From UHGV virus genome UHGV-0070365: a stretch of 39,408 nt of DNA; one strand, written 5' to 3'. The DNA is from a virus. The position numbers were made by a program, and so were the translations under genes. Below are positions 1 to 8,710 of the stretch, piece after piece. The first letter of the stretch is position 1. Every line of letters starts with the position of its first letter. Below the pieces are notes generated by a model. The model was not told where the DNA came from. It saw nothing but the letters and a program-made list of their open reading frames with translations, and ran no database searches.

Positions 1-52
1 TTATCAATTTGTTGCAACGAACAGGTCACTATCAGTCAAAATAAAATCATTA
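1..52. promoter_or_regulatory. attL: attL P' arm: IHF-like site (ATCAATTTGTTG, 2-14) and Int arm-type sites (CAGGTCACTAT 22-32, CAGTCAAAAT 33-42); core lies just left of window
   Basis: Matches WATCAA-N4-TTR IHF consensus and lambda arm-type consensus, directly abutting the 3' end of int. Confidence 0.6.
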
Positions 53-1120
53 TTTGATTTCAATTTTGTCCCACTCCCTGCCTCTGTCATCACGATACTG
101 TGATGCCATGGTGTCCGACTTATGCCCGAGAAGATGTTGAGCAAACTTATCGCTTATCTGCTTCTCATAGAGTCTTGCAGACAAACTGCGCAACTCGTGA
201 AAGGTAGGCGGATCCCCTTCGAAGGAAAGACCTGATGCTTTTCGTGCGCGCATAAAATACCTTGATACTGTGCCGGATGAAAGCGGTTCACGACGAGTAG
301 ATGCAATTATGGTTTCTCCGCCAAGAATCTCTTTGCATTTATCAAGTGTTTCCTTCATTGATATCCCGAGGGCATCAACATGCAATGCTGTTGGGATGGC
401 AATTTTTACGCCTGTTTTGCTTTGCTCGACATAAAGATATCCATCTACGATATCAGACCACTTCATTTCGCATAAATCACCAACTCGCTGCCCGGTAACA
501 ACAGCCAGTTCCATTGCAAGTCTGAGCCAACATGGTGATGATTCTGCTGCTTGATAAATTTTCAGGTATTCGTCAGCCGTAAGTCTTGATCTCCTCACCT
601 CTGATTTTGCTGCGCGAGTGGCAGAGACCGGGTTTGTTGTTATATGGCCTTCAGCTATTGCCTCTCGGAATGCATCGCTCAGTGTTGATCTGATTAACTT
701 GGCTGACGCCGCCTTGCCCTCGTCTATGTATCCATTGAGCATTGCCGCAATTTCTTTTGTGGTGATGTTTTCAAGTGGAGCATCAGGCAGACCCCTCCTT
801 ATTGCTTTAATTTTGCTCATGTAATTTATGAGTGTCTTCTGCTTGATTCCTCTGCTGGCGAGGATTTTTTCGTAGCGATCAAGCCATGAATGTAACGTAA
901 CAGAATTATCACTGTTGATTCTTGCTGTCAGAGGCTTGTGTTTGTGTCCTGAAAATAACTCAATGTTGGCCTGTATAGCTTCAGTGATTGCTATCCTCCT
1001 GTCTCGGCCTAATCCAAACTCTTTACCCGTCCTTGGGTCCCTGTAGCAGTAATATCTATTGTTTCTTATATAAAGGTTAGGGGGTAAATCCCGGCGCTCA
1101 TGACTTCGCCTTCTTCCCAT
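50..1120 (-). CDS. int: Tyrosine integrase, lambda Int type (356 aa)
   Basis: Translation MGRRRSHERRDLPPNLYIRNN... ends ...HLLGHKSDTMASQYRDDRGREWDKIEIK; near-identical to lambda Int as recalled. Confidence 0.96.
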   Translation of the reverse strand: MGRRRSHERRDLPPNLYIRNNRYYCYRDPRTGKEFGLGRDRRIAITEAIQANIELFSGHKHKPLTARINSDNSVTLHSWLDRYEKILASRGIKQKTLINYMSKIKAIRRGLPDAPLENITTKEIAAMLNGYIDEGKAASAKLIRSTLSDAFREAIAEGHITTNPVSATRAAKSEVRRSRLTADEYLKIYQAAESSPCWLRLAMELAVVTGQRVGDLCEMKWSDIVDGYLYVEQSKTGVKIAIPTALHVDALGISMKETLDKCKEILGGETIIASTRREPLSSGTVSRYFMRARKASGLSFEGDPPTFHELRSLSARLYEKQISDKFAQHLLGHKSDTMASQYRDDRGREWDKIEIK

Positions 1121-1316
1121 TTCTGATCCTCTTCAAAAGGCTACCTGTTACTGGTCGATTTAAGTCAACCTTTACCGCTGATTCGTGGAACAGATACTCT
1201 CTTCCATCCTTAACCGGAGGAGGGAATATCCTGCACTCGCGTACCCATCGACGAACTGTTTCAAGGCTTCTTGGGCGTCGCTGGCGAGCGTTCCACTCCT
1301 GAAGTGTCAAGTACAT
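1098..1316 (-). CDS. xis: Excisionase (72 aa)
   Basis: MYLTLQEWNARQRRPRSLETVRRWVRECRIFPPP...; lambda Xis-like, overlaps int start as in lambda. Confidence 0.93.
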   Translation of the reverse strand: MYLTLQEWNARQRRPRSLETVRRWVRECRIFPPPVKDGREYLFHESAVKVDLNRPVTGSLLKRIRNGKKAKS

Positions 1317-1341
1317 CGCAAAGTCTCCGCAATTACACGCA

Positions 1342-1363
1342 AGAAAAAACCGCCATCAGGCGG
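1342..1363 (-). terminator. Putative intrinsic terminator (CCGCC-ATCA-GGCGG hairpin followed by T-run on minus strand)
   Basis: Inverted repeat plus run of A on plus strand (T-run on minus) upstream of xis. Confidence 0.45.
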
Positions 1364-1611
1364 CTTGATGTTCTTTCAGTTCTTCAATTCGAATATTGGT
1401 TACGTCTGCATGTGCTATCTGCGCCCACAGCATCCAGTGGTCATAGCAGTCGTTGATGTTCTCTGCTTCGATAACTCTGTTGAATGGCTCTCCATTCCAT
1501 TCACCTGTGACTCGGAAGTGCATTTATCATCTCCATAAAACAAAACTCGCCGTAGCGAGTTCAGATAAAAGAAATCCCCGCGAGTGCGAGGATAGTTACT
1601 TGTTCATATTA

Positions 1612-1911
1612 TTAATCGTCAATGTATTTTGAGCATTGTGGGCAATCATCGATCCCACAATACGATTCATATGCATCCTTTATTGCGTCGCGGGCTTCAG
1701 TAAGAGTATTGAATAAGTTGCAGCTATTATCTTTTTGATATAGGTAAGTTCCTAATTTATAAGCAGAAGAAGCATCATTTCCGCTGTCTAAAATTACATC
1801 GTTATGGATTCTGCACCTTGCAAGAACTCCTGATCCCATAAGGGTCTGCATAGCCCATTGCTCTTGATCTTCACACAAATCATGAATGCTCATTTCAACA
1901 CCTCTCTTCAC
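1612..1911 (-). CDS. Ea8.5-like Cys-rich small protein (99 aa)
   Basis: ORF with CxxC pair near C-terminus (CPQCSKYIDD); position and pattern resemble lambda Ea8.5. Confidence 0.55.
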   Translation of the reverse strand: MKRGVEMSIHDLCEDQEQWAMQTLMGSGVLARCRIHNDVILDSGNDASSAYKLGTYLYQKDNSCNLFNTLTEARDAIKDAYESYCGIDDCPQCSKYIDD

Positions 1912-2007
1912 GTTTCACACACGTTAAGATTAACAGTGTTTTTACATGCTTTGGAAGATTTATTTTATAAAAACTCTTTTAATACAAATAGATATAATAG
2001 TTCACTA

Positions 2008-2730
2008 TTATAGCTCCTTTAATCGAGGCGGTTCTGGTAGAGGCATCCAGTGGGTTACACCGCCAATTGGCTCATCGTCGTCGTACTCCAATGCGGCTAT
2101 ATAGAACCCGTCACGACGAGAATAAGAAATCCCGGACATTACAATGCCATCCGAAACAACAATAATGTCACCCGTTTCTTTCGGCATTCGCTCACTACAG
2201 CTTATCCAACCATCCGGAGTTACCGGAGAGTTGCCATTTACATCGAAGTTTGGCTCTGCGTCCTGAACCAGGAGGATGTAACCATTCTTGGCAGTATCAA
2301 GTTCTAACGCCTCGGTGACGGTGCCGAAATAGCGATTACCTAAATCAGCATCACAAGTGCTTACATCAATGGAAACTTCCATGCCCTCGATTAATTCTGG
2401 CAAGTTGTAAGTTTGGCTTACAGGTTCGGCTTCCAGTTCTGCTATGCGCTTTTTTGCTGTTTCCAGCTCGCCCAGCAGTGTCAGCACGGTAGCCGGATTG
2501 GCTGCGGCGATGAATTCAGCATTGGCCTGCTGTTCTATTTGGAAATCTTCATCGAAACCGCTTTCAGGATGCGCTCCTTCAATTCTGCAAATGGGAATAT
2601 ATCCAGCAACTTCACGATGAATTAGCGCATCATCACCATCAAATCGGCTCTCTCCATATTCGAGCGACCACTCACCACTCGTTGCTTTCTCTGCCTTTTC
2701 ACGCAGTGCCTGATAGTTAATCTTGATCAC
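2008..2730 (-). CDS. Ea22/Ead-like protein with C-terminal DUF551-like domain (240 aa)
   Basis: Coiled-coil middle region and C-terminal WISCSERMPKE...THWMPLPEPP motif typical of DUF551 phage proteins. Confidence 0.55.
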   Translation of the reverse strand: MIKINYQALREKAEKATSGEWSLEYGESRFDGDDALIHREVAGYIPICRIEGAHPESGFDEDFQIEQQANAEFIAAANPATVLTLLGELETAKKRIAELEAEPVSQTYNLPELIEGMEVSIDVSTCDADLGNRYFGTVTEALELDTAKNGYILLVQDAEPNFDVNGNSPVTPDGWISCSERMPKETGDIIVVSDGIVMSGISYSRRDGFYIAALEYDDDEPIGGVTHWMPLPEPPRLKEL

Positions 2731-2971
2731 TGGTTGCCTCCTGCTTTTCTGCCTTCAACACCATGCGAGAACCATCATCCAGCTCCCACACTATCTCACC
2801 ACCTTCAGCCATGACCAGTTGCCACACCAATTGAGCAGCCTCATTGGTAACATCACGACCTGGATCATTGCCAACGCGCATACGTCCACCTTCAACATCG
2901 CGCATTTTTGCCAGCATGATAGTTTTTGATAGCGGTGAAAAACCAAGCTGTAGTCGTGCGGAATTACTCAC
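2717..2971 (-). CDS. Hypothetical protein (84 aa, GTG start)
   Basis: ORF in pL operon, GTGA overlap with upstream ORF stop. Confidence 0.45.
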
Positions 2972-3135
2972 TGCTTGCCTCCTTTACGCCACATCGCATT
3001 CAGATATTTGTTTTGATTTACTGATGGAAAAGAATTTCTCTTTAGCAATTCCTCTCTCGATGGCATTGGCTTTACGCGTTGGCGAATAATCATTTCTGCC
3101 GGAAGAATGCCGGGATTGTATGCAAGTCCTCTCAT
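2968..3135 (-). CDS. Hypothetical small protein (55 aa)
   Basis: ATG overlaps stop of upstream ORF (ATGA at 3132-3135); not in supplied ORF track because <60 aa. Confidence 0.35.
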
Positions 3136-3413
3136 GATTTACTCTCCACGAACTGGTCAATAGCCATGCTAAGTGACACACCTAAAGTATCGATATGCTG
3201 CTGAATATCCTGTAGCATCTGAGCCTGAGATAACAGGATTTCACGGTTGCATAATTCTTTAACCAGATGCTCAAACTTGCTGTAATAACCGATACGGCTT
3301 AGTGTTTCTTTCCCTGCATTATCACCTTCTTTGATAATTCCTCTTTCACTAAGAATCAGGTCGTGTTTTGTTCCGGTAATAACATATTTGCCTAGGTCTA
3401 TGTTTAGCTTCAT
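3132..3413 (-). CDS. Hypothetical protein (93 aa)
   Basis: [24 protein letters not shown]... in leftward operon. Confidence 0.5.
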
Positions 3414-3429
3414 TGTTAATTACTCCATG

Positions 3430-3744
3430 TTAATTTATTCGTATGCCTGCTCTTTCTTCATCGAGTTTTTTTAGCTTGTATCTCATAGCTCTTACTGAAT
3501 AAATTGAGCGGCAGGTTGCAATTGCTATTTCTTCTGCGGAGAACTTACCGAAAAGTGATACTTCGGCTCTTGTCCAGCGTCTTCCACGAAGTCGGCTAAC
3601 AATGTCAGCGCCAATCCTTGTTGCTTTCGCCATAACTGCTTTTTCAGTCCTTTCCAGTTTTTCAGCAATAACTTCAACTGGCATTGTCGCCGATACTTCG
3701 CGCAAGAAATCGACTTCCCATTTCTCCCATGGAGTCTTTTTCAT
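3430..3744 (-). CDS. Hypothetical protein (104 aa)
   Basis: ORF MKKTPWEKWEVDFLREV... in leftward operon. Confidence 0.5.
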   Translation of the reverse strand: MKKTPWEKWEVDFLREVSATMPVEVIAEKLERTEKAVMAKATRIGADIVSRLRGRRWTRAEVSLFGKFSAEEIAIATCRSIYSVRAMRYKLKKLDEERAGIRIN

Positions 3745-3755
3745 AGGCGATACCG

Positions 3756-4244
3756 TTATTTGATAAGAAGTGAAGGTTTCCCAACCTTGAGTTGAGCGCC
3801 TGGGATATTTATTCCTGCTTTTAGTTGGTGCTTGATTGCCAACTTGTCGGCTTTAATTGTCGTTTCAAACTCAACGTATTCAGGAGGAAGGGCGCTTGAG
3901 TCGATGATTTCTACAGTTTCTGACGGTTTGCGGATTGTTACCTGGTGAATACCTGCTCGAATCTTTTTCTTGCCAACCATTTCAAGCGATGACGCTATAT
4001 ATGATTTGATGCTGTCAATCTTATTTTGAATTACTGCGGCTCGCTCATTCAGCGACTTTGCCTCTTCCTTGAGGCGTTCAGCATAACCAGATTCATTTTT
4101 AATGACGGAAAGAAGTTGCTCTATTTTATCGGTAAATTCTCCTTCCATGCCTTCTATTGTGTCAGCAATCATCTCTGGTTCTAAATCTGAATCCATCAAT
4201 TTTGCGTATTCATTGGCAATTTCATACAGTTTGCTCACTGGCAA
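3756..4244 (-). CDS. Siphovirus Gp157-like protein (162 aa)
   Basis: MPVSKLYEIANEYAKL... coiled-coil protein immediately downstream of recT, typical Gp157 family arrangement. Confidence 0.55.
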   Translation of the reverse strand: MPVSKLYEIANEYAKLMDSDLEPEMIADTIEGMEGEFTDKIEQLLSVIKNESGYAERLKEEAKSLNERAAVIQNKIDSIKSYIASSLEMVGKKKIRAGIHQVTIRKPSETVEIIDSSALPPEYVEFETTIKADKLAIKHQLKAGINIPGAQLKVGKPSLLIK

Positions 4245-5124
4245 CCTCCAGTTTCGCTTTGCATTCTATGTAAATGGCTTGTACGTTCTGCTGCAATTTC
4301 ATTCCAGATGTCAGGCGATATGCTTCTGCAAAATATCGCTTCAAATCATCCATGTTTTCTGCCTGAGCCATTTCATCACAAAGAAGTTGTGCTTTTTCCA
4401 TAATTTCCTGCTGGCGTTTCCGTTCATCTTCGCGGATATCTTCCTCTGATTTGTGCGGCATAACTGGTTCCTGATGCATGCCTTCATCTTCGTTAAGCAG
4501 GTGAATGGCATTATCCAGTCGCTGGGCTTTAGGCCAGTATTTGCTGGCGCGTTTAACTATGGTTTTACGCGCCATCTCTTCCCAGAATGTCTTCCACGGT
4601 CCATTCTTTGCCTTGCTCGTTGCTTCCACAGCTTTAATTTCTGCCAGACTCATTTCTTCAGTCAGGTAGTCACCATCTGCTGTTTTAACCGTGCAATAAC
4701 CACCAACAATAGAACCTCGCTCACCAAATGCGTTGTATTTGTGGGTTGGTGCTGAATCAAGGCCGTTTGATTCATAGGTGTCGTTTGAGTACACCAGTTT
4801 GCATTGCCCCCACTTAATTGAGCCTGTCGATTGCGCAAGGTGAAGTAATCCCATGTAACTGATATCAAGGCACACCATGCCGTCGCGAGGAACCAGATAA
4901 GCCAGTTTGCTGGCCGGGTTTAAGGTGATGCCGATCGCCGCAACATTGATGATGGCGTTCTGTGCGCTGGTTGGGTTTGCCAGTGCTGTTTTAGCCAGGT
5001 AATCATTTTTCTGGAAATACTGAATTGCAAACTGGCTTTCCTTAGCCCATGTCACCGTCTGTTCAGTCAATGCTCCGCAGAATAACTGCTCTTGCTGTTT
5101 AACGAATTCAACGATATTGCTCAT
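4222..5124 (-). CDS. recT: RecT-family single-strand annealing recombinase (300 aa)
   Basis: Family-typical motifs (…AAIGITLNP…, …KYWPK…), acidic C-terminal tail. Confidence 0.85.
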   Translation of the reverse strand: MSNIVEFVKQQEQLFCGALTEQTVTWAKESQFAIQYFQKNDYLAKTALANPTSAQNAIINVAAIGITLNPASKLAYLVPRDGMVCLDISYMGLLHLAQSTGSIKWGQCKLVYSNDTYESNGLDSAPTHKYNAFGERGSIVGGYCTVKTADGDYLTEEMSLAEIKAVEATSKAKNGPWKTFWEEMARKTIVKRASKYWPKAQRLDNAIHLLNEDEGMHQEPVMPHKSEEDIREDERKRQQEIMEKAQLLCDEMAQAENMDDLKRYFAEAYRLTSGMKLQQNVQAIYIECKAKLEVASEQTV

Positions 5125-5432
5125 GCAGCTTCTCCATAAATATGTCTGCGTTTGAATATTGCGAAGGCATATTCAGCCTTAACTCTTTCGGTTATTGCAT
5201 CCCAGAACCATTCAGCGGCTTTTTCCTGATAGTTACAGTCATCATCTTCCAGCCAGTCGATAGCGTCCTTAGTGTGTTCATCTGGTTTATATGAGCGAAG
5301 CATTTCGCTTATTGGGTCGCAACGTTTGCAGAGACGATCAACTTCACTGTTGATTCGTTCGTAATCTTCATCGGTAAAACTTGCGATGATTTGCGATATT
5401 TCACGCTTATCATTCAGAGTCAGAATCATCAT
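5121..5432 (-). CDS. Hypothetical protein (103 aa), ATGA-coupled to recT
   Basis: Stop overlaps recT start codon. Confidence 0.5.
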   Translation of the reverse strand: MMILTLNDKREISQIIASFTDEDYERINSEVDRLCKRCDPISEMLRSYKPDEHTKDAIDWLEDDDCNYQEKAAEWFWDAITERVKAEYAFAIFKRRHIYGEAA

Positions 5433-5517
5433 CTTTCTCCTGTTCTTTGTGCTGATTGAGCATTTCTTTCATCTGACGAATGAATTCTTCGTCTGACCAT
5501 GTATCCGCAATGCTCAT
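5410..5517 (-). CDS. Hypothetical micro-protein (35 aa)
   Basis: ATG overlaps stop of upstream 54-aa ORF (ATGA); acidic C-terminus. Confidence 0.3.
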   Translation of the reverse strand: MSIADTWSDEEFIRQMKEMLNQHKEQEKDDDSDSE

Positions 5518-5678
5518 TGCTTAACGACCTTAATCAGTTGAGTTACCTCAATGATGTCCTCGCATAAATCCGAGTACTGAAATGGGCCGCAGTTGTGAGA
5601 GTTAGTGCGTCGGGCGAAAGCCATTCTTCTAAGCTCTTTCAGGGCTTCTTCCAGTTCCTCGTAAGTTGGTTTTTTCAT
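5514..5678 (-). CDS. Hypothetical small protein (54 aa), in Kil position
   Basis: ATG overlaps cIII-like stop (ATGA); MKKPTYEELEEALKELRR... Confidence 0.4.
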   Translation of the reverse strand: MKKPTYEELEEALKELRRMAFARRTNSHNCGPFQYSDLCEDIIEVTQLIKVVKQ

Positions 5679-5845
5679 GGCTGTACCTTTTGATTCAGAA
5701 ACTCAACAAGACGATCCAGCAAGCTCTTAACGCGAGGTTGTTTAAAGTCTGCTCCGGTTAAAATGTTTTTTCGTGAATGCTGCACCGATAAAATCGGGTT
5801 GAAAGGGCGAACCGATGCCGCCCCTGCAATAGCGAACTGTTGCAT
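5675..5845 (-). CDS. cIII: CIII-like protease inhibitor (56 aa)
   Basis: MQQFAIAGAASV... resembles lambda CIII N-terminus (MQYAIAG...); GGAG SD 7 nt upstream. Confidence 0.55.
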   Translation of the reverse strand: MQQFAIAGAASVRPFNPILSVQHSRKNILTGADFKQPRVKSLLDRLVEFLNQKVQP

Positions 5846-5911
5846 AGGATGCTCCTTCTGTTTGATTGCATAACGAAAACGCCTCGAGTGAAGCGTTATT
5901 GGTATGCATAT

Positions 5912-5935
5912 AAAAAAGCCCTCACACTGGAGGGC
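5912..5935 (-). terminator. Intrinsic terminator (GCCCTC-N6-GAGGGC hairpin plus T6 on minus strand)
   Basis: Perfect 6-bp stem followed by A6 on plus strand, between ral and cIII. Confidence 0.6.
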
Positions 5936-6071
5936 AAAGAAGATTTCCAATAATCAGAACAAGTCGGCTCCTGTTTAGTTACGAGCGACATTGCTCCGTG
6001 TATTCACTCGTTGGAATGAATACACAGTGCAGTGTTTATTCTGTTGTTTATGCCAAAAATAAAGGCCACCA

Positions 6072-6272
6072 TCAGGCAGCCTTGTTGTTATGTTTACCAA
6101 GTTCTCTGGCAATCATTGCCGTCGTTCGTATTGCCCATTTATCGACATATTTCCCATCTTCCATTACAGGAAACATTTCTTCAGGCTTAACCATGCATTC
6201 CGATTGCAGCTTGCATCCATTGCATCGCTTGAATTGTCCACACCATTGATTTGTATCAATAGTCGTAGTCAT
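6072..6272 (-). CDS. ral: Restriction alleviation protein Ral (66 aa)
   Basis: MTTTIDTNQWCGQFKRCNGCKLQSECMVKPEEMFPVMEDGKYVDKWAIRTTAMIARELGK... matches lambda Ral as recalled. Confidence 0.88.
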   Translation of the reverse strand: MTTTIDTNQWCGQFKRCNGCKLQSECMVKPEEMFPVMEDGKYVDKWAIRTTAMIARELGKHNNKAA

Positions 6273-6397
6273 ACGGATAGTCCTGGTATTGTTCCATCAC
6301 ATCCTGAGGATGCTCTTCGAACTCTTCAAATTCTTCTTCCATATCTCACCTCAAATAAGTGGTTTGCCGCGAAAAAGTAAAACAAGGATACTCACTT

Positions 6398-6670
6398 CTA
6401 TTTGTCATCGTGTAAGCGACGCAGGTTATTAACTCGCGGCCAGTAATATTTTGGCTTGGCACGAGATCCGGGTCTTGGACCTACACAAACTATATAGCTC
6501 TCTTCTTTCCTCGGAAGGCCAGGCGCATCTAGCAGACGACCTAGTTCGAATTTTTTTACGTTGACACCAGGAGGAATCACCTCGACGATAAACCCGATTT
6601 TTACCTTCGTTACACCGTTTGATGAGCTTGACCATTTAACTTCATCGTTCAATTTGAACTTCATCATTAA
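6398..6670 (-). CDS. Hypothetical protein (about 90 aa) immediately downstream of N
   Basis: ORF MMKFKLNDEVKWSSSSNGVTKVKIGF...; start placed at internal Met after N stop. Confidence 0.45.
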   Translation of the reverse strand, partial: LMMKFKLNDEVKWSSSSNGVTKVKIGFIVEVIPPGVNVKKFELGRLLDAPGLPRKEESYIVCVGPRPGSRAKPKYYWPRVNNLRRLHDDK

Positions 6671-6672
6671 CC

Positions 6673-7005
6673 TCAATCGTAATAAGCTGGAATTGATTTT
6701 CCGCGTTGCTTCTGGCGGCCTGAGCAAGTCACACCCATTTCACTGCGTGGCTTGCTGTACCATGTGCGCTGATTCTTGCGCTCAATACGCTGCAGGTTGC
6801 TTTCAATCTGTTCGTGGTATTCAGCCAGCACCGTAAGGTCTATCGGATTCAGTGCGCTTTCTACTCGTGATTTCGGTTTGCGATTCAGCGAGAGAATAGG
6901 GCGGTTAACTGGTTTTGCGCTTACCCCAACCAACAGGGGATTTGCTGCTTTCCATTGAGCCTGTTTCTCTGCGCGACGTTCGCGGCGGCGTGTTTGTGCA
7001 TCCAT
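6673..7005 (-). CDS. N: Antitermination protein N (110 aa)
   Basis: MDAQTRRRERRAEKQAQWKAANPLLVGVSAKPVNRPILSLNRKPKSRVESALNPIDLTVLAEYHEQIESNLQRIERKNQRTWYSKP...; arginine-rich N-terminus, lambda N-like. Confidence 0.9.
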   Translation of the reverse strand: MDAQTRRRERRAEKQAQWKAANPLLVGVSAKPVNRPILSLNRKPKSRVESALNPIDLTVLAEYHEQIESNLQRIERKNQRTWYSKPRSEMGVTCSGRQKQRGKSIPAYYD

Positions 7006-7162
7006 CTGGATTCTCCTGTCAGTTAGCTTTGGTTGTGTGTGGGAGTCGTAGTCCTGAACGAAAACACCCCGCAATGGCACATTGGCAGCTAATCCGGATT
7101 CGCACTTCCGGCCAATGCTTCGTTTCGTATCACACACACCAAAGCTTTCTGCTTTGAATGCT

Positions 7163-7193
7163 GCCCTTCTTCAGGGCTTAATTTTTAAGAGCG
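7163..7193 (-). promoter_or_regulatory. nutL: nutL (boxB hairpin GCCCTGAAGAAGGGC and boxA CGCTCTTA on minus strand)
   Basis: Exact boxA and boxB motifs read on minus strand upstream of N. Confidence 0.88.
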
Positions 7194-7238
7194 TCACCTT
7201 CAATGGTGGTCAGTGCGTCCTGCTGATGGCTTAAAATT

Positions 7239-7307
7239 ACAAGAAAGATTGTATGTTGTAAACAAGAAATATTGTAAAAAGGGGGCGTAAAAAACAAACT
7301 CCATTGT
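7239..7307 (-). promoter_or_regulatory. OL: pL/OL region with three 434-type operators ACAAGAAAGATTGT (7239-7252), ACAAGAAATATTGT (7262-7275), ACAAACTCCATTGT (7294-7307)
   Basis: Three 14-bp ACAA-N6-TTGT sites of the phage 434 repressor type. Confidence 0.85.
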
Positions 7308-7357
7308 TTTTAAACGGAAAATAGTTTGTTTTTTGGTTATCGAGATTGAGGTGGGGA

Positions 7358-8710
<1,353 letters not shown>

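Follow-up and report, generated by a model that had tools for sequence, protein, structure and literature searches.

The virus genome UHGV-0070365, a stretch of 39,408 nucleotides (nt) referred to here as the window, carries a dense block of small genes between its xis gene and its recombination genes (positions 1612-3744, minus strand). We find that this block is an ordinary lambdoid accessory region of the kind known from lambda and Stx phages as exo–xis and from P22 as 'ea'. It has the flavour of the Sf6, HK140 and P22 versions, and it is represented by an identical RefSeq copy and one solved protein structure. All six of its open reading frames (ORFs) are real genes, and all fall in catalogued families. 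The genes, together with the small gene that lies on the xis side of the block, are listed below with product lengths in amino acids (aa) and, where relevant, isoelectric points (pI).

1356-1523, minus strand: homologue of lambda orf55 (lambdap35), 55 aa
1612-1911, minus strand: Ea8.5-family gene, 99 aa from GTG 1911; probable start ATG 1893 (93 aa)
2008-2730, minus strand: Ea22-like gene (Ead_Ea22 plus DUF551), 240 aa, GTG start
2717-2971, minus strand: DUF7446 gene, 84 aa, acidic
2968-3135, minus strand: DUF2737 gene, 55 aa, very basic (pI 11)
3132-3413, minus strand: DUF5405 gene, 93 aa
3430-3744, minus strand: tandem helix-turn-helix (HTH) gene, 104 aa, basic (pI 10); first gene after the recombination (Rec) module

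The initial annotation of this DNA had placed six leftward genes, with products of 99, 240, 84, 55, 93 and 104 aa, between xis and the Rec module. All six were recovered at these positions, and the same six genes are called by RefSeq/PGAP in Escherichia coli EC2 (NZ_CP058571), which carries a 100% identical stretch. The count for the interval is nevertheless seven, because the orf55 homologue had been missed. The product of this gene is 98% identical to lambda lambdap35 and to HK140 gp31 and matches phrog_676 (4e-40). The tight packing that had been noted also stands, with the six ORFs accounting for ∼94% of positions 1612-3744. However, the ATGA/GTGA overlaps said to accompany it occur at just two junctions (GTGA at 2968-2971 and ATGA at 3132-3135). 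The other junctions consist of a 14-nt overlap between the 240-aa and 84-aa genes (2717-2730) and gaps of 16 and 96 nt, and a further 11 nt separates the cluster from the upstream Gp157 gene.

Three of the smaller ORFs were compared with distant homologues of 46-73% identity. For the 93-, 104- and 55-aa genes, the proportion of nonsynonymous differences (pN) is far below that of synonymous differences (pS). The ratio of the corresponding substitution rates (dN/dS) is 0.22 for the DUF5405 gene, and the DUF2737 gene gives a pN of 0.19 and a pS of 0.74 against P22 orf56. Thus, these three ORFs are real coding genes and not chance reading frames.

Protein families of the cluster

The distal gene of the six encodes an Ea8.5-like protein, as had been proposed. 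Its product matches the full length of the Pfam profile Lambda_ea8_5 (PF20735, profile positions 1-90) with 58.4 bits, well above the gathering cut-off of 27. The protein is acidic, contains six cysteines and shares 41% identity with lambda Ea8.5 (blastp). All 99 residues of ORF 1612-1911 are identical to PDB entry 2M7A, which is described as a prophage Ea8.5 homologue with a hybrid homeodomain/zinc-finger fold and as one of the two nuclear magnetic resonance structures that define this fold (Kwan et al. 2013, as cited in PMC8614690). The two are identical at the sequence level, the structure yielded no function, and the native protein probably starts six residues later. The most likely true start is ATG 1893, since a Shine-Dalgarno sequence (GAGAGGTG) precedes this codon, PGAP places the start there, the resulting 93 aa agree with the length of lambda Ea8.5, and the match to phrog_6325 (7e-57) begins at residue 7 of the 99-aa ORF. 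Cell-division and transcription partners of lambda Ea8.5 come from two-hybrid data only (yeast two-hybrid, with early genetic hints; PMC8614690). The homologue in the window is possibly a modulator of transcription or of cell division.

Both domains assigned earlier to the 240-aa protein are likewise present above their Pfam gathering scores. Ead_Ea22 (PF13935) is matched at residues 3-123 (E = 8.8e-20; 72.1 bits, cut-off 27) and DUF551 at residues 174-235 (E = 6.3e-14; 53 bits, cut-off 22). The gene starts with a GTG directly after a perfect AGGAGG, and its product consists of an Ead_Ea22 N-terminal and coiled-coil part (residue 1 to ∼105), an acidic middle, and the C-terminal DUF551 domain (174-235). 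In blastp comparisons, residues 1-102 are 77% identical to HK140 gp35, residues 1-210 are 53% identical to Sf6 gp21, with which the acidic middle segment is shared, and residues 166-235 are 45% identical to the C-terminus of P22 EaA, a protein in which DUF551 is fused to a dATP/dGTP pyrophosphohydrolase. The combination of Ead_Ea22 with DUF551 corresponds to a published variant termed 'Ea22 V2' (PMC10834534).

The Ea22 proteins of lambda and Phi24B favour host survival and lysogeny (PMC7093339) and are tetrameric (PMC10834534), the tetrameric assembly and the pro-lysogenic effect being known for the lambda, Phi24B and P27 proteins only. By analogy with these relatives, the protein encoded here is probably a coiled-coil oligomer that would display a portable DUF551 head. 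Within the DUF551 coding part, a 54-nt block (2183-2236) is 91-94% identical to HK140 gp32 and P22 eaA, unlike its flanks, and this block could mark a hotspot of recombination or else a core that is conserved in the portable domain.

None of the four remaining small proteins had been regarded as recognisable. In fact, three of them belong to the Pfam families DUF7446, DUF2737 and DUF5405, and the 104-aa protein is represented in PHROG. The statement holds to the extent that none of these families carries an assigned function. Literature on DUF2737, DUF5405, DUF7446 and recent work on Ea8.5 yielded no function for these families, and the supplements of an accessory-gene screen contain neighbourhood tables only. 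Sequence and profile searches of the PDB gave no significant match for the Ea22-like, HTH, DUF5405, DUF2737 or DUF7446 proteins; for the last of these, no solved relative was found by sequence-profile search.

The 84-aa protein matches DUF7446 (PF24233) with 68 bits against a cut-off of 24.1 (E = 6e-19), as well as phrog_1578, and PGAP assigns it the same name. The family comprises 382 homologue clusters and is widespread in prophages of Enterobacterales and also present on plasmids. The slot that it occupies between DUF2737 and ea22 is variable, being filled by an HK97 gp37-like gene in HK140 and by a DUF7739 gene in Sf6. We also considered whether DUF7446 could be a detached Ea22 C-terminal domain, but the weak blastp similarity to HK140 gp35 (E = 0.035) was unconfirmed by Pfam.

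The 55-aa protein is an unambiguous DUF2737 member (PF10930; 109.2 bits, cut-off 25, E = 9e-32), with 100% identity to Sf6 gp23, 93% to HK140 gp37 and 77% to P22 orf56 (blastp). This family of basic proteins of ∼55 aa is small: among 1.8 billion proteins it accounts for 60 representative clusters. Its alignment has a single sharply conserved core with an RNSF motif in which R33, N34, S35 and F36 vary little or not at all. The pattern of conservation allows the guess that DUF2737 might be a short, peptide-like binder that docks onto a partner protein. In a profile search against the PDB, the similarity of the core to the C-terminus of the P22 tail accessory factor gp4 (PYPSRMPTGSGNSFPNLNE) was not significant (E = 0.2) and is probably due to chance.

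The match of the 93-aa protein to DUF5405 (PF17399) is marginal (23.0 bits, cut-off 21.6). The protein also matches phrog_154 (9e-30) and is 97% identical to HK140 gp38 and 94% identical to Sf6 gp24. Its predicted fold, a four-stranded beta-sheet followed by two helices, matches the structures of DUF5405 proteins in BFVD (TM score 0.85, E = 1.5e-8). The label 'replication initiation protein' attached to phrog_154 was rejected for DUF5405, since no similarity to a known replication initiator domain was found.

The 104-aa protein matches phrog_11492 (1e-22) and phrog_323 (3e-19) and is 98% identical to HK140 gp39, with no solid Pfam match. The protein itself gives only a borderline match to HTH_12, while 12 of 17 family members match Sigma70_r4_2 (best 1.4e-7). 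An alignment of the family exhibits two internal repeats (W-x3-E-x2-L ... EIA-x3-RS-x3-V), to which relatives of ∼152 aa add a third. When the family profile was compared with the PDB, the DNA-binding domain of NarL was recovered weakly, with an E-value of 0.012 that is near chance. The AlphaFold2 model has a predicted local distance difference test score of 83 and contains two three-helix units whose relative orientation is uncertain (predicted template modelling score 0.46). Among PDB structures, Foldseek ranks a CRISPR-repeat-binding protein, DUX4 HD1-HD2, Pax6 and AraC nearest to the model; each is a DNA binder with a bipartite HTH, and none is a significant match (E > 0.1).

In possessing two three-helix HTH units, the modelled 104-aa protein resembles bipartite HTH DNA binders of the sigma-70 region 4, LuxR-NarL and paired or homeodomain tandem types. 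Unlike the characterised proteins of this kind, it lacks a receiver, a sigma region 2 and any further partner domain. Because the model is HTH-like and the pI is 10, DNA binding is the natural expectation, and we predict that the 104-aa protein binds DNA. Matches to the family come from Escherichia, Salmonella and Citrobacter only, and a 99-aa homologue was read separately in a Klebsiella prophage locus (L012).

Operon context and mosaic structure

The window is an apparently complete P22-like prophage genome with a lambda-type int-xis-orf55 arm. The features that flank the cluster on either side are the following.

1098-1316: xis
1347-1366, minus strand: third terminator-like hairpin, after orf55 (consensus scan)
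1543-1593, minus strand: terminator-like hairpins with T-tracts, a tandem pair just past the ea8.5 stop (consensus scan)
3756-4238/4244, minus strand: Sipho_Gp157 or 'Mu Gam-like' gene (Pfam Sipho_Gp157, 2.5e-38)
4222-5124, minus strand: RecT gene (Pfam RecT, 2.6e-33)
6072-6272, minus strand: ral, upstream on the same strand
within 6673-7137, minus strand: lambda-type N, upstream on the same strand
7759-8391, minus strand: cI-type repressor gene, upstream on the same strand

With the repressor, N and ral genes upstream on the same strand, the cluster occupies the distal portion of the early-left (PL) operon, which bears out the earlier description of an accessory cluster in the int-proximal early-left region. 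The other side of the window contains ORFs for replication and morphogenesis together with tailspike-like and gtr-like ORFs. The EC2 copy adjoins ybhC, beside int and xis.

The Rec module (3756-5124) is composed of RecT and Sipho_Gp157 and lacks genes for an exonuclease or SSB. The same holds for the HK97-like phage HK140, whose module has been classified as SAP type 4 plus MuGam and as nuclease-free (PMC12315714). The module in the window matches PHROG 148 and 253, with 96% identity to HK140 gp40 (blastp). For the Gp157 gene, GTG 4238 is a more probable start than TTG 4244; it follows a GGAGG and gives a 17-nt overlap with the RecT stop. Directly upstream of RecT, with overlapping stop and start, lies a gene for an acidic 103-aa protein (5121-5432, minus strand; phrog_3486, no Pfam match). 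A 102-aa gene holds the same slot, before RecT or a DUF3799 exonuclease gene, in four other prophage loci (L008, L010, L012 and L013), and the 103-aa gene may be another uncharacterised gene linked to Rec modules. Two further early genes were located more precisely within longer reading frames. In an overextended 154-aa ORF (6673-7137), the start of the lambda-type N protein is at about Met44 (MDAQTRRRERR...), and a cIII-like protein of 56 aa (MQQFAIAG...) is nested in a 91-aa ORF (5675-5950, minus strand).

Gene order and lambda biology suggest how the cluster would be expressed. A transcript would start at PL beside the cI-type repressor gene, and N antitermination would carry it through ral, cIII, RecT, Gp157, the six genes of the cluster, orf55, xis and int. 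The short overlaps and strong Shine-Dalgarno sequences would fit translational coupling on one such transcript. Terminator-like sites in positions 1-8000 number 17, about twice the 7.4 expected from shuffled sequences, and in HK140 a rho-independent terminator is annotated after gp31, the orf55 homologue of that phage, at the position that matches the third hairpin. A search of the whole window against Rfam revealed no RNA family.

Comparison with reference phages (blastn) indicates that identity breaks at or near gene ends, at 1658, ∼2742, 2966 and 3417. The resulting segments are as follows.

1-1658: lambda-like (int, xis, orf55 and intergenic terminators; 96.7% identity to lambda), with an intragenic joint ∼47 nt inside the 3' end of ea8.5
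2432-2742: Sf6/HK140-like, Ea22 N-terminus
2743-2965: no match in HK140, Sf6, P22 or lambda, DUF7446
2966-3417: Sf6-like, DUF2737 and DUF5405
2987-5517: HK140-like

The prevalence of each gene, counted as near-identical DNA of the single gene among 5,426 complete E. coli genomes, also differs from one gene to the next.

ea8.5: 111 genomes
ea22/DUF551: full length in 6 genomes, fragments in 2,747
DUF7446: 173 genomes, with 47 places on plasmids
DUF2737: 1,266 genomes
DUF5405: 342 genomes
HTH gene: 299 genomes

The genes of the block are independently reassorting lambdoid cassettes that have been swapped at gene boundaries among phages of the lambda, HK140, Sf6, HK620 and P22 types. In the EC2 prophage, which is otherwise identical, an IS1 insertion sequence (IS) at 6923-7855 of the EC2 locus truncates recT, and in three E. 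coli isolates from wastewater (SW0716xx) the match to the cluster is split by an annotated IS5-like ISKpn26 transposase of ∼1.2 kb. Insertions at these places fit a block that is dispensable in the prophage state.

Comparison with known regions and the accessory role

The exo–xis region of lambda and Stx phages, studied by the Wegrzyn and Donaldson laboratories, comprises ea8.5, ea22, orf61, orf63, orf60a and orf73. The cluster has the same location as this region, on the PL operon between recombination genes and xis, and resembles it in containing homologues of Ea8.5, the Ea22 family and orf55 and in being small, dense and mosaic. The lambda/Stx core genes orf60a, orf63 and orf61 are missing, however, and the tandem-HTH, DUF5405, DUF2737 and DUF7446 genes stand in their stead. 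No relation between the cluster proteins and lambda orf60a (DUF1317), orf63 (DUF1382) or orf61 was detected by blastp (E ≤ 1), hhalign (probability < 1%) or Pfam. The Rec modules differ as well, being RecT plus Gp157 here and Exo/Bet/Gam in lambda and Stx phages.

The 'ea' regions of Sf6, HK620, P22 and HK140 provide closer counterparts. DUF2737 corresponds to Sf6 gp23, HK140 gp37 and P22 orf56, DUF5405 to Sf6 gp24 and HK140 gp38, the HTH protein to HK140 gp39, the Ea22 N-terminus to Sf6 gp21 and HK140 gp35, and DUF551 to the C-terminus of P22 EaA. The mosaic joints at gene boundaries are those classically described for these four phages. Three differences set the window apart. DUF7446 replaces HK140 gp36 and Sf6 gp22. 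An Ea22 N-terminus, a Sf6-like middle and DUF551 are fused in one protein, a combination distinct from those of Sf6, HK140 and P22 whose gene occurs at full length in only 6 of the 5,426 E. coli genomes. Finally, the joint to a lambda-type int-xis-orf55 arm lies within the 3' end of ea8.5. The exact mosaic combination and the presence of the tandem-HTH family at the end of diverse Rec modules appear to be new details. The existing picture is not changed by this block, a further mosaic variant of an exo–xis/ea region that is non-essential in lambdoid phages.

We consider it likely that the cluster represents the accessory segment known as exo–xis (in P22, 'ea') within the PL operon of a P22-like/lambdoid prophage, and that this segment is dispensable and expressed as an N-dependent delayed-early unit. 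The lambda genes ea8.5, ea22, orf60a, orf61 and orf63 are non-essential by CRISPR interference (PMC10695390). By analogy, the six products would probably be dispensable modulators of the infection programme, neither structural nor essential.

Several observations weigh against this assignment. The functional data cover lambda/Stx relatives of only two of the six genes, and the C-terminal domain of the Ea22-like protein differs from that of lambda. Because orf60a, orf63 and orf61 have no homologue in the cluster, the phenotypes described for lambda are not simply transferable. The HTH gene is linked almost perfectly to Gp157/RecT, as described below, and this fits a role in the Rec module better than it fits a generic accessory role. 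The tandem hairpins after ea8.5 imply that read-through would depend on antitermination, which is assumed. A promoter scan returned fewer sites than shuffled sequence and gave no evidence of an internal promoter.

Position after recombination modules and other readings

The four genes without assigned function form a set that recurs after Rec modules, and within it the HTH gene behaves as part of the Rec block. Among E. coli genomes that carry the HTH gene, 296 of 299 have it contiguous with Gp157. More distant relatives occupy comparable positions. In Salmonella, the order is Gam, a 167-aa gene, a YqaJ exonuclease gene and then a three-repeat homologue, which overlaps the YqaJ stop. In metagenomic prophages, a 99-aa homologue overlaps the YqaJ stop after RecT and is followed by DUF2737 ... 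Ead_Ea22. The Klebsiella prophage L012 encodes its 99-aa homologue at 4705-5004 (plus strand), a gene that is absent from the source gene list and for which locus L013 has an equivalent gap. The order in L012 is a DUF3799 exonuclease/197-aa pair, the HTH homologue, DUF5405, DUF7446 and DUF2737. DUF5405 genes follow the Rad52/SSB/Abc2 module in E. coli and abc2 in Sf6, as well as DUF3799 and RecT/YqaJ modules.

These arrangements suggest that the HTH protein, and possibly the DUF5405 and DUF2737 proteins, might belong functionally to the recombination/replication module, either as factors for RecT/Gp157 or in a switch from theta to sigma replication. Homologues of the HTH protein with 57-58% identity stand directly after the last Rec gene of three different modules (Gam/SSAP/YqaJ, RecT/YqaJ and DUF3799 exonuclease/197-aa), often with overlapping stop and start codons, and DUF5405 recurs in like manner. 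The HTH protein is also basic, with folds predicted to bind DNA. However, linkage at 95-99% DNA identity may reflect a single mosaic block that has spread recently, and the distant contexts inspected number only five. The HTH and DUF5405 genes occur together in just 143 of the 488 genomes having either gene, and a survey of lambdoid Rec modules names no such component (PMC12315714). Lambda orf60a also overlaps the exo stop, yet its deletion affects lysogenisation and host survival (PMC7093339). On balance, a functional membership of the Rec module appears unlikely. A toxin-antitoxin interpretation of the HTH and DUF5405 pair was rejected, with no support from PADLOC or Pfam and with the two genes together in the same minority of genomes.

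A second possibility is an island for anti-defence or host takeover, in which one or more of the small proteins would inhibit host immunity or shut down a host process early in infection. The initial annotation had favoured genes of this kind, and the ORFs do not all correspond to well-characterised neutral phage proteins, their families being catalogued but uncharacterised. The region is early and fast-shuffling and lies near counter-defence genes, with ral upstream and with abc2 adjoining the DUF2737/DUF5405 homologues in P22 and Sf6. It encodes small proteins of strongly acidic or basic character, whose genes have a patchy and cassette-like distribution. In addition, a published accessory-gene screen identified P22 abc1, a gene of the neighbouring module, as a trigger of an abortive-infection locus (10.1101/2023.04.06.535777).

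Conversely, none of the six proteins matches a defence component in PADLOC (E ≤ 0.01) or an entry in NCBIfam. Pfam, PHROG and the PDB gave no match to characterised inhibitors (Acr, Ocr, Ral, Abc2, Gam and others), although these are general libraries, none dedicated to anti-defence proteins, and novel inhibitors could escape such searches. Moreover, the experimental data on relatives, namely the pro-lysogenic Ea22 of lambda/Stx phages and Ea8.5, bear on the lysis-lysogeny decision and not on defence (PMC7093339, PMC8614690). We therefore regard a role in anti-defence as doubtful, and the accessory segment of the PL operon remains the preferred interpretation.

A bolder proposal seems less probable still. 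The 104-aa HTH protein could be an unrecognised DNA-binding component or regulator of lambdoid Rec modules, possibly together with DUF5405 and DUF2737, or the set that follows these modules could counter host sensors of phage recombination proteins. The block is of use mainly as a pointer to such questions. About one quarter of the complete E. coli genomes contain DUF2737, and the tandem-HTH, DUF5405 and DUF7446 families are widespread too, all four of them unstudied. Since the HK140 and Sf6 versions are at least 93% identical, roles in recombination, in the choice between lysis and lysogeny or in counter-defence could be tested cheaply.

Finally, it is very improbable that some of the ORFs are decaying remnants of a defective prophage, despite the IS1 element in recT of the EC2 copy and the apparent IS5-family insertion within the cluster of the wastewater isolates, because each of the six ORFs is intact, pN values are far lower than pS values, homologues of at least 90% identity exist in the plaque-forming phages HK140, Sf6, Kapi1 and Gally, and the window encodes an apparently complete P22-like genome.

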